The notes under the pieces: model-generated
Databases searched by the model: none
What the model saw: only the letters and a program-made list of their open reading frames with translations
What the model was told of the DNA's origin: nothing
Position numbers and translations under genes: made by a program
NCBI GenBank assembly: GCA_964016885.1
Contig: OZ024740.1
Coordinates: 147,374,001-147,438,000 of the forward strand
Source: Eledone cirrhosa
Taxonomy: Eukaryota
Length of the DNA: 64,000 nucleotides
Direction of reading: 5' to 3'
In this document: positions 9,396 to 47,070 of the stretch, piece by piece
How the letters are laid out: each line of letters begins with the position of its first letter
Numbering within the stretch: the first letter of the stretch is position 1

Positions 9396-9737
9396 GGAAA
9401 ATGTTCAGGACTCCAGCAGCAGAGCTCAAGCCGTTTCGACGGCTATTTCTGGATTAAATTAGATTTTTAGCGTGGTAATAAATTGCATGATTATCGCATG
9501 ACCATATATGGAATTACCCCTTGAAAAGTTCGGCCTTTATTACCACGCTAAAAATCTAATTTAATCCTTAGATTTTTAGCGTGATAATAAAAGCCGAACT
9601 TTTCAATAGCCGTCGAAACGGGTTGAGCTCTGCCGTCGAGGTCCTGAACATTTTCCTATTACCTACTCTACTACGCAAAGTATCGAGTACTCTGCTGCGT
9701 TATGGTTCACCTGGTTCCTTACCACACTTCCTTCGTT
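9396..9737. mobile_element. Rearranged PLE 3' repeat fragment with HHR-like motif, between (TA)n tracts
   Basis: Homologous to 35681-35893 and 37246-37370; several internal inversions; ttgaaaa...gaaacgg..gccgtc motif. Confidence 0.7.
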
Positions 9738-11315
9738 ATATATATATATATATATATATATATATATATATATATATATATATTATCGTATATGTATATA
9801 CATATATAAGCTAGATTATTAGACGGTATATTTATTACTAATAAATTTTAATTTGTGCGTTTAGTCTTCCACAAGTTTTAACGTTTTCCTTAATATATTT
9901 GCCAGTTTTGCTCAATGACTTTGAAGAAAAAATTAGGTATATTTTGCTTATTTTCTCTTCACATTTTTAATTGTTCTGATTAATTGATTATTTTCTAAAA
10001 GTCTCTCATTGAGCAAAATTGTTAAAGGAGGAATACCACATATATATATATGTAGTGACGTACATTCCGAGGGCTCATGGATACATTCTCCGTACGTTGT
10101 TTGGCTCAGTTCAGCCAATCGCTACCAGCGTAGGGAAATGTATCTCGACTTCCGCCCAGAGGGAAACATTCCGCTTCTATTCAAAAATCTCTCTCTTGCA
10201 GCTCGACACCGTGATGGTAAACATCTCTTGATTTCGTTCCTCAAGCATAGACAATATGTAGCAACAAATATCATTACGGGTCTGGCTAACGCCTCAGCCA
10301 GTTGACCGTACCTCCTTAAACTCTTAATTTGTCTATTCACTTCATTATGGCATGCCAGCTAAACCTTTGTAATCTGTTTGTAAATAAATTATATATTATA
10401 AACATTATAAAGTCGTATGATGCCACAACATTGCTTTTAACATCTTCAATGGTGACTTCTGTGATACAATACACAAATAAACACATTCTCAACACATACA
10501 TATATATCATCTATTAACTTCCTCCAATTTAGATACTATTTCTAAATATACTTATGTATCTATGTGTATGTGTATTTTATTATTTTGTCCCAACTCCCTT
10601 ACGGTTGAATGAATGAAATAAACGGGTATTGGCTGCTTCTTCTAGCAAGTATAATAATCGCCAAACGTCCAGCCTTTACCACCCTTCTGCGACCGTTATA
10701 CCACGTGATAATTCTCGCTCCTGAGAATTTTTCACGTGTAGCAGCCAGTTCAAGAATTCGTCCTTTCATTGAGGGATCGCTTGAAAAACCAAGAGCCTCA
10801 CGGTCCTGGTGCACTTTAGTTGCACTCTGGCAGCATACCAGTCAGCGATACTGTACAGTCGACTGTTTGAAGAAAAAATTGTTATATAACTCTGATTAAT
10901 TGATTATTTAAAAAAATCTTATAGTTATGTAGCTATATGTATGTGTATAGTATTATTTTGTATATATATATATATTAAGAAAAACCATGAAGGTTCGTTT
11001 ACGTGTTTTTAGTTTTTTTCTTGTGTATCGATCCGTTATGGGTGTTTCGCAGAAGATTATCGCAGGGTCACTCATTTCAAATATGTCTATAACCTTAGTT
11101 CGTGCATGAGAATGTGAGCCTCTCAATGTGTATCAGTGTGTGTGTTAATGCTTTTGTGGATGTGTATTACCATGGAGAGGAGCTGGGCTCCGCCGGGTTT
11201 TTTAAAATGTCCTGATAAGCCGTATGTCAATGCTGCACCTTTAAGACCTCCACAGTAGTTACTGGTTCATACATACATACTACAATTATAATGTGTGTGT
11301 GTATGTGGCTGTGTG

Positions 11316-12202
11316 CAGTGGCGGACTGGCCAGGTTGCCAGGTTGCCCAATGGCAAGTGAGCCTCATTGTAACTTTGAATCTAACTGACATGCAAAAACA
11401 TATATATATATGAATAAAGTAAGCCCAAATCATAGTAGATTCAAATATCACAGAGAGAAAGAGAGAGTGGGGGGGGGGGGGGGGAGAAATAAGGTGCAAC
11501 AGAAATGAAACATTGATTATAGGTTAAAATATAGTCTAGATAGATGAGAAACAGAACGAGGATGTTACATGGAACACCCAACTGATTTAGAAGTCGTCCT
11601 TAAGTAGGAGCAATACCATTAAGAAAGACATGAACAACACCACATCATTTTGTGTTGAACATTTTGAAAGTAGGTTTATAAGTATGAATTTTCAATAGAC
11701 CTTCGTAGCTGTCTCAGTGGACTAGCGGTAGGTACTAGAGACGTGGCGATCCTGGTCTTTGGTTCAATCCTGGTCGAGAGGCACATGTAAACTTTTTCAG
11801 TTTTCATTTTACATCCCATAGAAAAAAACTGAAAAGGTTTACCGGGTACCCTACTCCTGACCAGGATCGAAATTCAGACCAGGATCACCACCGTCTATGA
11901 TTCCTCCAACTAGGCGGGCGAGACAGTTACAAAGGTATAATGAAAATTAATAAATATAAATCTACTTTCAAAATCAAAGTTTAAAAGATGTGGTGTCGTT
12001 CATGGCTTTCCAAGAGTTATTAGTCATATTTAGGGTCGACTTGTCAATCTTCTGGCTCTTTGGTAACAACCTTATTCCTATGTGTTTAACTGTTGAATTA
12101 ATTTAATTTGATTATTTTAACAAACAAATGATAGCATTCTATATGTAGGTGGGCCCCCTTCATCTCCTGGCAACCAATACTTTTAGACCCAGTCCACCAC
12201 TG
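11316..12202. mobile_element. MITE-like element with 14-bp TIRs and an internal imperfect palindrome containing two tRNA-like sequences
   Basis: Ends cagtggcggactgg / ccagtccaccactg (one mismatch); about 11620-11805 is an imperfect inverse of about 11825-12010. No clear TSD. Confidence 0.6.
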
Positions 12203-12231
12203 CCCGTGAGTGTTCACATGTCACCATATAA

Positions 12232-12340
12232 TTGTTTCTACTTTTGGCACAAGGCCAGCAATTACCCAGTGTATTACTGGTACTTTATTTTATCGACCCT
12301 GTAAGGATGAAAGGCAAAGTTAACCTCGGCGGGATTTGAA
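12232..12340 (-). mobile_element. SINE 3' fragment
   Basis: Near-identical to 43891-44000. Confidence 0.75.
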
Positions 12341-44077: not shown

Positions 44078-44667
44078 ATATATATATAAAATAATGGTTG
44101 CATTTTAATAGGGTACGCTAAAGCTTATTTGTAAAACTGTTATATATTGTATTTTGTCTGATGAAGGCATACCATAATTTAATTTGTATATATTTATTTA
44201 TATATATATATATTTATATATATATATATATATATTTATATATATATATATATTTATATATTTATTTATATATATATATATTTATATATTTATTTATATA
44301 TATATATTTATTTATATATATATATTTATTTATATATATATATTTATTTATATATATATATTTATTTATATATATATATTTATTTATATATATATATATT
44401 TATTTATATATATATATTTATTTATTTATATATATATATTTATTTATATATATATATATTTATTTACTTATATATATATATATTTATTTATTTATATATA
44501 TATATTTATTTATTTATATATATATATACTTATTTATATATATATATTTATTTATATATATATATTTATTTGTATATATATATTTATTTGTATATATATA
44601 TTTATTTGTATATATATATATATATATATATATATATATATATATATATATATATATATATATATAT

Positions 44668-45820
44668 AAGTTGTAATATAATGAAACAAAATTTAATTTC
44701 TCACTCTTAGTACGGCACTTACTTAAATGTAAGTATGTATGTATACGTACATACATATATGTATACAGACGTACAGTAGCATGCATATATATATATATAT
44801 ATATATATATATATATATATATATATATATATATATATATATATATATATATATATATACATACAGGTACACATATATATATGTACGTATCAGTTTAGCG
44901 GACGTTTATTATAACGCCCGCTTTGTCATAAGGAAAGTATATACTTTCGAACGTTCAACTATCTGGCAGAAGGGTATACGGTGCTGATGATAGCTAAGAA
45001 GCTTGAAACTAGTACATCGTTCCTTTGTCAGTGTTGAACAAAAAGGTGACGTGGTTGCCTTAACACCGTACGGCATAAATCAGGCTGTCCGCTTGTTTAC
45101 AAACGGACAAAGCGGGCGTTATAATAAACGTCCGCTAAACTGATACGTACATATATATATATGTGTACCTGTATGTATATATATATATATATATATATAT
45201 ATATATATATATATATATATATATATATGCATGCTACTGTACGTCTGTATACATATATGTATGTACGTATACATACATACTTACATTTAAGTAAGTGCCG
45301 TACTAAGAGTGAGAAATGAAATTTCGTTTCATTATATTATAACTTATCGTTTTCGGTACGCCTGGCCGACTGAACTTACTCGATATGCAAATTAGGCTGC
45401 TCAGCCGTTAATTTTAATAAGGAAAGTATATACTTTCGAACGTTCAACCATCTGGCAGAAGGGTATACGGTGCTGATGATAGCTAAGAAGCTTGAAACTA
45501 GTACATCGTTCCTGTGTCAGTGTTGAACAAAAAGGTGACGTGGTTGCCTTAACACCGTACGGCATAAATCAGGCTGTCCGCTTGTTTACAAACGGACAAA
45601 GCGGGCGTTATAATAAACGTCCGCTAAACTGATACGTACATATATATATGTGTACCTGTATGTATATATATATATATATATATATATATATATATATATA
45701 TATATATATATATATATATATATATATATATATATATATATATATATATATATATATGCATGCTACTGTACGTCTGTATACATATATATATATGTACGTA
45801 TACATACATACTTACATTTA
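44668..45820. repeat. About 489-bp HHR-containing tandem repeat (about 1.8 copies) with an inverted partial arm 44668-44925; related to the 422-bp family
   Basis: ggaaagtatatactttcgaacgttcaac at 44932 and 45421; plus-strand HHRs at 44978-45020 and 45467-45509. Confidence 0.88.
44978..45020 (+). ncRNA. Type I hammerhead ribozyme (second copy 45467-45509)
   Basis: ACGGUG-CUGAUGA-uAGCU(AAGA)AGCUu-GAAA-CUA-GUA-CAUCGU. Confidence 0.88.
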
Positions 45821-45844
45821 TATATATATAAATATATATATATA

Positions 45845-47070
45845 TTGTTATACTTTGGGAGGGTCATGTTGCTAATAAGAAACACACGGACCAGTTGTTT
45901 CACTTCAATTTATTATAATAAATGTAGGAATTTTTTATAAATTTCTGGTTGGTAACCCTTGAGGAACATATGTTCAAATTTAATCGAAAAACATATGCCC
46001 AAGAGGAAGGAGCAGCTATTGGTGTTAGCATTGCAGGCGACATAGCTAACTTATTCATGGTATGGTGGGACAGTAGACTTAAACTTAAACTTAAAGAACA
46101 ATTAGAAGACCCCCTAACCCTGATAATGTACTCCCGCTACGTTGATGATATTAACATCGTAGTTAAGACACCCCCACTAGAGAACAGTCAGGAACTAGAG
46201 AAAAACACAATGGAAAGCATCCAGCAAATAGCTAACTCCATCCACCAGAGTATTAGAGTTACTATAGACTACCCAAGTAAACACCCCAACCATCGATTAC
46301 CTGTACTAGACACAGAGCTCTGGTTAGATACCATTAATGACAAAAAACAAATCCTCCATTCCCATTATGCCAAACCCATGACTTCCAAACATCTGATCCA
46401 CCGAAACTCAGCTGTTTCGGACCATACCAAAATCAACTTACTGATTGCGGATTTGGTACGGGTGATATGAAAAACGTGTCCCGCATGTGCAACCCCGAAG
46501 AACTAGAGAGACACATACAACACTTCATCCACCGTATGCAGTTCTCTGGTTACAATCAGAGAGATAAAATCAGAGTGTATAGAGGAGCCAGAACCAAATG
46601 GAAAAAAATGGTAAATAATGACGCAAATGGGACCTGCCCCTTGTATAGGAGCAAATTTTGGAATAGAATAGAAAGAACTAGGAATAAACGAATATAAACA
46701 CACACAGACACCCGGATGTGGCGCATGCGCAGACTGAGCACATAACACACACACAGAAACAAATTGGCGTAGGACAGAACAAAGGAGAGGCACCAAAACA
46801 AAGAAAAGAATCCCCAGTCACTGAAGAGGTCACAGAATGTGTTACGAAAGAACTTTGACAATATATAAACAACTATCTGGTTGTGGAACCAACCAACCAA
46901 CCAGAAATTTACAAATTCCTAAATTTATAAATTTATTATAATAAATTGAAGTGAAAGCAACTGGTGCGTGTGTTTCTTATTGGCAACATGACCCTCCCAA
47001 AGTATAACAATATCGGTTTCAACACACGATTTCAGATAAAGAATCTTGCTAAACAAATTCAGAAACGAAA
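45845..47070 (+). mobile_element. PLE family A copy, 5'-truncated, GIY-YIG deleted, with a short inverted 3' end
   Basis: RT ORFs 45949-46697 (YVDD); jump to the 3' UTR at about 46688; 45845-45950 is the inverse of about 46897-47010. Confidence 0.9.

Follow-up and report, generated by a model that had tools for sequence, protein, structure and literature searches.

Non-coding hammerhead ribozyme arrays in Eledone cirrhosa carry the two-armed, tailed insertion footprint of Penelope-like elements

Within a 64,000-nucleotide stretch of the Eledone cirrhosa genome (NCBI GenBank assembly GCA_964016885.1, contig OZ024740.1, positions 147,374,001 to 147,438,000 of the forward strand; hereafter the window, with positions counted from its first letter) we found tandem arrays of non-coding repeats with a hammerhead ribozyme core in each unit, lying among coding Penelope-like elements (PLEs) and sharing with them the same form of insertion. 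Array and PLE insertions both consist of two inverted arms that run outward into (TA)n and whose outer ends are staggered by a characteristic distance. We consider it probable (roughly 0.8) that the arrays were inserted in trans by a PLE protein with reverse transcriptase (RT) and GIY-YIG endonuclease domains, which used one retrozyme RNA, probably circular, as the template at both cut ends of its target.

Two-armed and tailed insertions in the window

Between 9.4 and 47.1 kb the window contained 13 insertions with (TA)n tracts between them. With simple repeats masked, all 13 had two arms with abutting 5' ends, the left one on the minus strand and the right one on the plus strand, so arranged that the sense 5' ends lay at an internal junction and the 3' ends pointed outward into (TA)n. 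RT or GIY-YIG fragments were present in seven insertions, and three were non-coding tandem arrays with a hammerhead core (310, 422 and 489 bp units). The original prediction had listed eleven elements as lying between (TA)n tracts with arms back to back. We confirmed this for all eleven and likewise for 9396-9736 and 34923-35462, the latter being a mixed insertion of two PLE families that had not been on the list. In the following feature list, a long end reaches further 3' than a short end of the same element, and the difference is given as the tail or offset.

9396..9736: two-armed stump related to family E7; left end short, right end long, tail 80 nt
17161..19945: PLE E1; GIY-YIG C-terminal frame at 18578-18991 on the minus strand; junction 18928/18929; right arm with hammerhead at 19757-19801; left arm ending in the element's own internal TA tract
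20143..23521: PLE E2; frameshifted RT and GIY-YIG at 23439-21639 on the minus strand with a CX4CxxC linker; long-ended left arm; short-ended right arm of 140 nt from 23382; tail 35 nt
23947..28384: 310-bp hammerhead array of the non-LTR (LTR, long terminal repeat) retrozyme type; two arms, all units identical; left arm 23947-25553, minus strand, 5.2 units, short end at unit position 130 past the predicted cleavage site; right arm 25555-28384, plus strand, 9.1 units, long end at unit position 165
28631..30684: PLE P1, 5'-truncated; long-ended left arm with RT thumb and GIY-YIG at 30302-29199; right arm short-ended and containing an internal jump; tail 58 nt
30747..34770: PLE E5; arms meeting at 33670/33671, the left one long and the right one short; tail 101 nt; CxCX5C linker, Hydra-like by motif; hammerhead in both arms
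34923..35462: mixed insertion; long-ended arm of family Q on the minus strand, head-to-head with a short-ended P1 arm on the plus strand; arms joined near 35200-35206 with no TA in between
35682..37370: PLE E7; long-ended left arm of 214 nt; short-ended right arm of 1.47 kb with a GIY-YIG C-terminus (frame 35852-36142, plus strand); tail 80 nt
38268..41828: PLE P1; arms of about 1.78 kb each, the left one short-ended and the right one long-ended
42119..43311: 422-bp hammerhead array; left arm 42119-43130, minus strand, 2.4 units, long end; right arm about 43127-43311, plus strand, short end; offset to the long end 59 nt
43351..43550: stump of PLE family Q; two arms, left short and right long; tail 67 nt; hammerhead in both
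44668..45820: 489-bp hammerhead array; left arm 44668-44927, minus strand, long end; right arm 44928-45820, plus strand, short end; offset about 58 nt
45845..47070: PLE P1; short left arm of 109 nt; long right arm of 1.1 kb with an internal deletion

The 489-bp unit is a variant of the 422-bp family (about 79% identity) with a longer internal TA. A lone short-ended arm of the E7 family, 49 nt long (37874-37922), was also found within a (TA)n tract.

Across the PLE insertions of the window we saw an inverted, 5'-truncated copy and a tail at one end only. The offset between the arm ends, a feature absent from the original prediction, amounted to 35 nt in E2, 58 nt in P1, 67 nt in Q, 80 nt in E7 and in the stump at 9396-9736, and 101 nt in E5; in the window arrays it was 35 nt for the 310-bp units and 58-59 nt for the 422/489-bp units. 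The array offsets match the tails of E2 and P1, respectively. An exception to the tail pattern was E1, whose left arm terminates in the internal TA tract and falls short of the right end by about 560 nt. The tail, the inverted copy and the preference for (TA)n have been described for PLEs by Craig et al. (PMC8557442). Frangieh et al. (PMC11167929) reported in vitro cleavage and extension of both strands by a PLE protein, with RT starting at two internal sites, the gap between them being the tail, which they called unique to PLEs. The staggered arm ends are this PLE tail, and its presence on non-coding arrays is stronger evidence than the two-armed layout.

The footprint across the genome

Genome-wide scans were made as exact-pattern searches over the 3.0-Gb assembly. 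The 310-bp hammerhead pattern returned 4,225 matches and a reversed control none. The long end followed by TA matched 983 times and the short end followed by TA 1,197 times, the latter an overcount because a variant unit matches internally. The 310-bp array of the window is one among roughly a thousand insertions. We inspected the first 10 clusters on contig 1 (sample A) and 40 loci chosen by their long end (sample B; the first 44 listed minus four already in sample A). Nine of the 10 clusters in sample A were two-armed, all with one long and one short end, and 19 of 19 outer ends entered TA-rich repeat. Sample B contained 34 two-armed and four single-armed loci (one of them beside an assembly gap), and two that ran beyond the region; the partner end was visible in 33 of the 34 and was always short. 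In all 42 two-armed loci beyond the window whose ends could both be seen, a long end (unit positions 163-170) was paired with a short end (118-139), the short site lying 26-39 nt before the long one. Coordinates alone classed 38 of the 42 outward pairs as long plus short, where about 50% would be expected (p about 2e-8), and one of the four exceptions, when inspected, was long plus short in a variant unit.

The 3' ends were clustered and the 5' phases uniform along the 310-bp unit (97 arms, p=0.41). Among 44 junctions the arms overlapped in 23 (by 1-5 nt, in one case 14), met bluntly in 4, and had 1-16 nt between them in 17, some of these fillers being merely sequence variants. A duplicated junction with a short re-inversion was seen in one locus (L041, near 4743-4920). 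The original prediction had named the lack of the inversion or of the (TA)n flanks in most copies as a result that would refute it. Most genomic copies keep both, an outcome in favour of the prediction.

The 422/489-bp family showed 13,837 hammerhead matches genome-wide. By our own reading of its first 20 loci, 11 were long plus short, three were two-armed with one disturbed end, four were single-armed, one was joined to a PLE arm and one was ambiguous. Among the 100 matches listed, adjacent hammerheads on opposite strands were back-to-back in 17 cases and face-to-face in none. One 422-bp insertion was present in two copies with an identical junction (L120).

For the coding families, exact patterns identified 11,658 long and 12,893 short P1 ends, and from coordinates alone 41 of 46 outward P1 pairs were long plus short against about 50% expected (p about 2e-8). 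Among 15 E2 loci chosen for their long end, seven had a partner arm, which was short in every case and lay 31-42 nt back. In four loci (L150, L153, L154 and L158) the E2 short ends entered (CT)n or (CT)n(TA)n, repeats that match the last bases of the element itself, from which it follows that priming is guided by local microhomology. A control family resembling short interspersed nuclear elements (SINE-like; 37,731 matches) had no two-armed locus among 25, and TA downstream in 2 of 25.

A screen for mixed-family insertions gave six head-to-head candidates among 116 junctions, of which two remained after inspection: the Q and P1 arms in the window, and a 422-bp arm with an E7 arm (L113). Both are long plus short. 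Three candidates were rejected as simple-repeat matches and a fourth (L077) because its 310-bp arm was nested in the internal TA of a 489-bp copy. A deletion beside an older copy could explain both surviving junctions, and their value for the link to a helper is suggestive only.

One template for both arms

Fixed variants were identical across the two arms in 40 of 43 loci of the 310-bp family, a comparison from which L056 was dropped for its very short arm and in which a locus present twice was counted once. Arms taken from different loci agreed in 298 of 3,205 pairs (9%; fully covered arms, 25 haplotypes among 81 arms). Eight loci carried a private variant, unique within the sample, that was present in all 4-17 copies of the two arms; we discounted a ninth (L050), whose variant was an alignment artefact. 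Inside arrays there were 0.54 non-fixed differences per kb, whereas loci differed from one another by 3.25 fixed differences per unit. Private variants throughout an array together with uniform units are predicted by repeated, rolling-circle copying of one monomer.

The P1 copy at 38268-41828 addresses the start of the two arms. Its left arm extends 83 nt further 5' and its right arm 58 nt further 3'. Each arm has sequence absent from its partner, which excludes that either of them arose by fold-back copying. Priming from both ends of the break, as originally proposed for the whole set, is needed at least here. In the 310-bp loci the short-ended arm was the longer one in 18 of 43.

Weighing of alternatives

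Several observations speak against insertion of the arrays in trans by a PLE. Our samples came mostly from contig 1, and 40 of the 50 loci were chosen for a long end in TA. Any target-site duplication is masked by the (TA)n flanks. Arm lengths were positively correlated (rho 0.42, p 0.005), single-armed copies occur, and five of the 46 P1 pairs were not long plus short, all of which speaks against a clean two-primer model. No array unit aligned to any of six PLE 3' ends beyond weak likenesses, namely a hammerhead-only likeness of 26-28 nt between the 310-bp unit and the Q 3' end (z 3.9) and an AT-rich match between the 489-bp unit and the P1 3' end. The agreement in tail length may be chance, as there are five tail values between 35 and 101 nt and we estimated the probability of both arrays matching at roughly 1 in 8. 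Isolated hammerhead motifs folded no better than shuffles, Rfam reported none of the array hammerheads at E<=0.1, and in the window copies a U-U replaces the usual G10.1-C11.1 pair (A-U in one 310-bp variant). The absent pair would lower confidence in the predicted catalytic activity and leave that in the footprint as it is.

One alternative keeps the PLE helper and exchanges the circle for a linear multimeric transcript, so that arrays would be copied unit by unit from a parent. We consider this unlikely, although it deserves serious attention: hammerhead cleavage was dispensable for PLE insertion in vitro, where the principal substrate was RNA that had not been cleaved (PMC11167929), some parent arrays exceed 25 units, and correlated arm lengths fit a length-limited template. 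A new mutation would then be expected in one daughter unit, whereas eight loci have private variants throughout both arms. The near uniformity inside arrays also disfavours a linear template, though a young, uniform parent outside the sample could explain some of it. It is also improbable that the second arm arose by self-priming or fold-back on the new strand instead of a second target-primed start, an idea put forward for PLEs in PMC3846280. Fold-back accounts for identical variants in the two arms, for junction microhomology and for the length correlation, which even a partly fold-back process would yield, and in the tandem arrays the extent of the arms is compatible with it. A fold-back copy must, however, nest in the first arm. 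The arms at 38268-41828 do not, the tail-less arm at 35682-37370 is seven times as long as the tailed one, and the two mixed-family insertions pair long with short ends; for the PLE copies 38268-41828 and 35682-37370 fold-back is already excluded.

The footprint might instead be due to another enzyme, either through twin priming by a long interspersed nuclear element (LINE) or through repair of a TA-hairpin break with circular DNA or RNA, in which case the likeness to PLEs would come only from (TA)n. This we regard as very improbable. In its favour, the array units lack a sequence link to the six PLE 3' ends compared, (TA)n is abundant in the genome and may break easily, and a LINE-type RT is encoded in the window at 58114-59232. 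Against it, the arms made by LINE twin priming are not known to cover the same RNA region, unlike those of the arrays here, repair is not expected to give fixed 3' starts with strict pairing of long and short, and the SINE-like control had a single orientation and few TA flanks. There is only a slim chance that monomers landed first and arrays grew in place by unequal crossing-over, although local homogenisation can render units uniform and local amplification was proposed in the discussion of a 2026 preprint (10.64898/2026.07.22.740005); growth in place leaves unexplained the fixed outer and random inner phases, the private variants common to inverted arms, and the near-zero divergence at about a thousand dispersed loci. 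That the palindromes are long-read fold-back chimeras fixed in the assembly has a negligible probability. Flanks were unrelated in 31 of 33 testable 310-bp loci and in the other two were neighbouring repeats, similar and not mirror copies, and because the flanks are not mirror images, fold-back in the assembly is unlikely. The arms are, moreover, unequal in length and stop at two distinct fixed sites, and the SINE-like control was without such pairs.

Proposed mechanism and helper

Insertion in trans by a PLE protein could proceed as follows. The arrays have a hammerhead core in each unit and no long frame; their multimeric transcripts would self-cleave and the monomer would circularise. The endonuclease would cut both (TA)n strands, as the flanks and PLE biochemistry suggest, and the DNA ends would start cDNA at the two fixed internal sites visible in the footprint, a long and a short one that both have a few bases matching TA. 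Each RT would circle the RNA a variable number of times, giving non-integer, unequal arms with one shared variant. The cDNA ends would finally join via the 1-5 nt overlaps or short fillers and with the lack of a preferred unit phase that the junctions display. We infer both the action in trans and the RNA nature of the template. The start sites of P1 (41770 and 41828 in the window), the 310-bp short end and the 422/489-bp long end read ATATCG or TTATCG, which is a possible start motif.

Tentatively, one could go further and suppose that one PLE dimer grips one RNA and primes both (TA)n cut ends at two preset sites, one for each end, with rolling-circle RT on a retrozyme circle proceeding from the two ends simultaneously, and that the tail is a ruler of the protein family that names the helper (E2-like for the 310-bp arrays, P1 for the 422/489-bp arrays). 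If true, one reaction would explain PLE inverted repeats, the tail and the retrozyme arrays. The physical neighbourhood of arrays and PLEs in the window is no evidence for a pair of helper and parasite, because the shared (TA)n target by itself produces such a neighbourhood.

Hammerheads and RNA of the array units

The GC content was 34.5% in the 310-bp unit, 38.4% in the 422-bp unit and 34.6% in the 489-bp unit, in each case under the limit of about 45-50% for non-LTR retrozymes. A motif scan identified the hammerhead core CUGANGA...GAAA in every full unit of the three arrays, with a 6-bp stem I, a 4-bp stem II that a U-U closes, and a stem III that is short and palindromic; the stems vary between families with pairing preserved. 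Such a layout has been linked to dimeric cleavage (Cervera and de la Pena, PMC4209133). Folded as circles, whole units gave z-scores of -4.3, -8.1 and -10.7, the last two inflated by TA runs. The only Rfam hammerhead match in the window was the one in E1 at 19757-19801 (29.1 bits, gathering score 34). No long reading frame was present on either strand of tripled 310-, 422- and 489-bp units, the longest ATG frames being 30, 51 and 54 codons. The claim that the hammerhead repeats are non-coding stands for these three arrays. It fails for 43351-43550, which is the 5'-truncated 3' end of the coding PLE Q, as other Q copies continue upstream into a GIY-YIG frame.

Between 63 and 100% of the sampled words of the 310-bp unit (25865-26174) were found in 20 public runs with 18 organism labels from 17 studies, and no RNA dataset was among the listed public runs that contain it. 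In two of three contig runs, of unstated kind, the unit assembled into a single closed contig of 310 nt that had 0-2 differences and lacked flanks, though a circle and a tandem array look alike in such contigs. This could reflect trace DNA or RNA of this animal, the presence of close relatives, horizontal transfer or circular RNA in free form.

Coding elements of the window and genome

YxDD and YIG-type motifs were present in the translations of the window PLE fragments. Five of 12 PLE-region fragments matched Pfam RVT_1 or GIY-YIG, with E values of 1.6e-4 to 6e-3, all below the gathering score. Four full P1 copies that we examined had frames of 1,277-1,281 codons with YVDD and YIGET motifs, and the whole P1 frame had no Pfam match at E 0.05. 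Open frames of at least 1,200 codons contained 11 of 111 scored P1 matches at about 99% identity, and P1 is a young, abundant family. In full-length copies both P1 ends lie within the first 90 nt of its own open reading frame (ORF), as in described PLEs. No intact full-length E2 frame was found among the 15 E2 loci. One intact P1 protein (L141, G000:C1:154523500-154532500) had a long asparagine-rich insert ahead of the RT, which resembles those in Penelope elements of Adineta.

The linker motif was CX4CxxC in P1 and E2 and CxCX5C in E5; from these motifs alone P1 and E2 are candidates for the Neptune/Nematis type and E5 for the Hydra type. With respect to hammerheads in the terminal repeats of the PLEs, the motif scan identified the core in P1, E1, E5 and Q and found none in E2 (20143-23521) or E7 (35681-37370).

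In 14 pairs among the first 100 matches to family Q, both arms ended upstream of the hammerhead core at a combined distance of 4-22 nt, and longer Q copies showed at this spot a pyrimidine-rich run and an AG, similar to a 3' splice site. The 20 Q loci inspected were selected by hand, and we derive no frequencies from them. In Penelope an intron ends on the 5' side of helix I (PMC4209133). The site where the Q arms stop may be a fixed RNA 5' end or a strong stop.

Other features of the window lay outside the insertions:

49087-51102, plus strand: frame of 671 codons that encodes a NOT2/3/5 C-terminal domain and contains a 96-bp repeat in 8.5 copies, for which a beta-flower model gave a match
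55683-55810, minus strand: U4 snRNA-like match covering the entire model (44.1 bits, gathering score 46)
58114-59232, minus strand: LINE-type RT followed by a PHD finger, without (TA)n flanks and not two-armed

Comparison with known systems

The element types and a partnership between PLEs and retrozymes are already known or proposed. Use of PLE machinery by retrozymes was proposed in 2020 (Cervera and de la Pena, PMC7229834), and co-occurrence and a phylogeny based on pseudo-long terminal repeats (pLTRs) were added by Li, Clavereau and Pollet in 2026 (10.64898/2026.07.22.740005). Like non-LTR retrozymes, the arrays described here consist of tandem non-coding units of a few hundred bp with low GC and a type I hammerhead core each, their circles would be strongly self-paired, and PLEs co-occur, which PMC7229834 and the preprint name as the likely mobiliser. 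The published evidence comprises shared hammerheads, tandem layout, co-occurrence and pLTR homology. Our arrays differ in carrying the PLE footprint, and in comparison with six PLE 3' ends they had no pLTR homology beyond the hammerhead. Word searches in the main texts of PMC7229834 and of the preprint, whose supplementary figures could bear on novelty, revealed no treatment of inverted arms, microsatellite targets or tails, and we found no description of the footprint on retrozymes in the literature searched, subscription journals and supplements lying outside it.

The window PLEs resemble canonical endonuclease-positive (EN+) PLEs (PMC8557442, PMC3846280, PMC11167929) in their RT and C-terminal GIY-YIG, the inverted and 5'-truncated copy, the tail at one end only, the (TA)n target and the ends inside the ORF start. 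In the rotifer Adineta, such PLEs were inferred to act in trans on host DNA flanked by pLTRs; the cargo here is, unlike that, a tandem hammerhead repeat without pLTR. The tails are 35-101 nt long, compared with 30-40 in published PLEs, and in 41 of 46 P1 pairs the long start lay on one arm and the short start on the other, whereas Frangieh et al. (PMC11167929) saw no difference in start sites between strands. Non-autonomous Chlamys PLEs of the alga Chlamydomonas, such as MRC1 and Chlamys-N4, are likewise non-coding partners of PLEs, with a head-to-tail multicopy layout and a microsatellite target (PMC8557442, PMC9977147). They differ in that they share 3' sequence with their autonomous family and the target is (C)n, and the Chlamys clade is said to lack canonical hammerheads.

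The apparently new points are that retrozyme arrays have the PLE tail, the rule of one long and one short end, and the evidence from shared variants for rolling-circle copying. The mobiliser of animal retrozymes has so far been argued from co-occurrence and shared ribozymes, and a tail footprint at around a thousand young loci bears on it more directly. The arrays inform the unsolved PLE reaction as well, with a long and a short start per insertion, one variant and arm lengths that do not nest. Near-identical intact PLE frames and exact predicted start sites make the question testable with the published in vitro assay.

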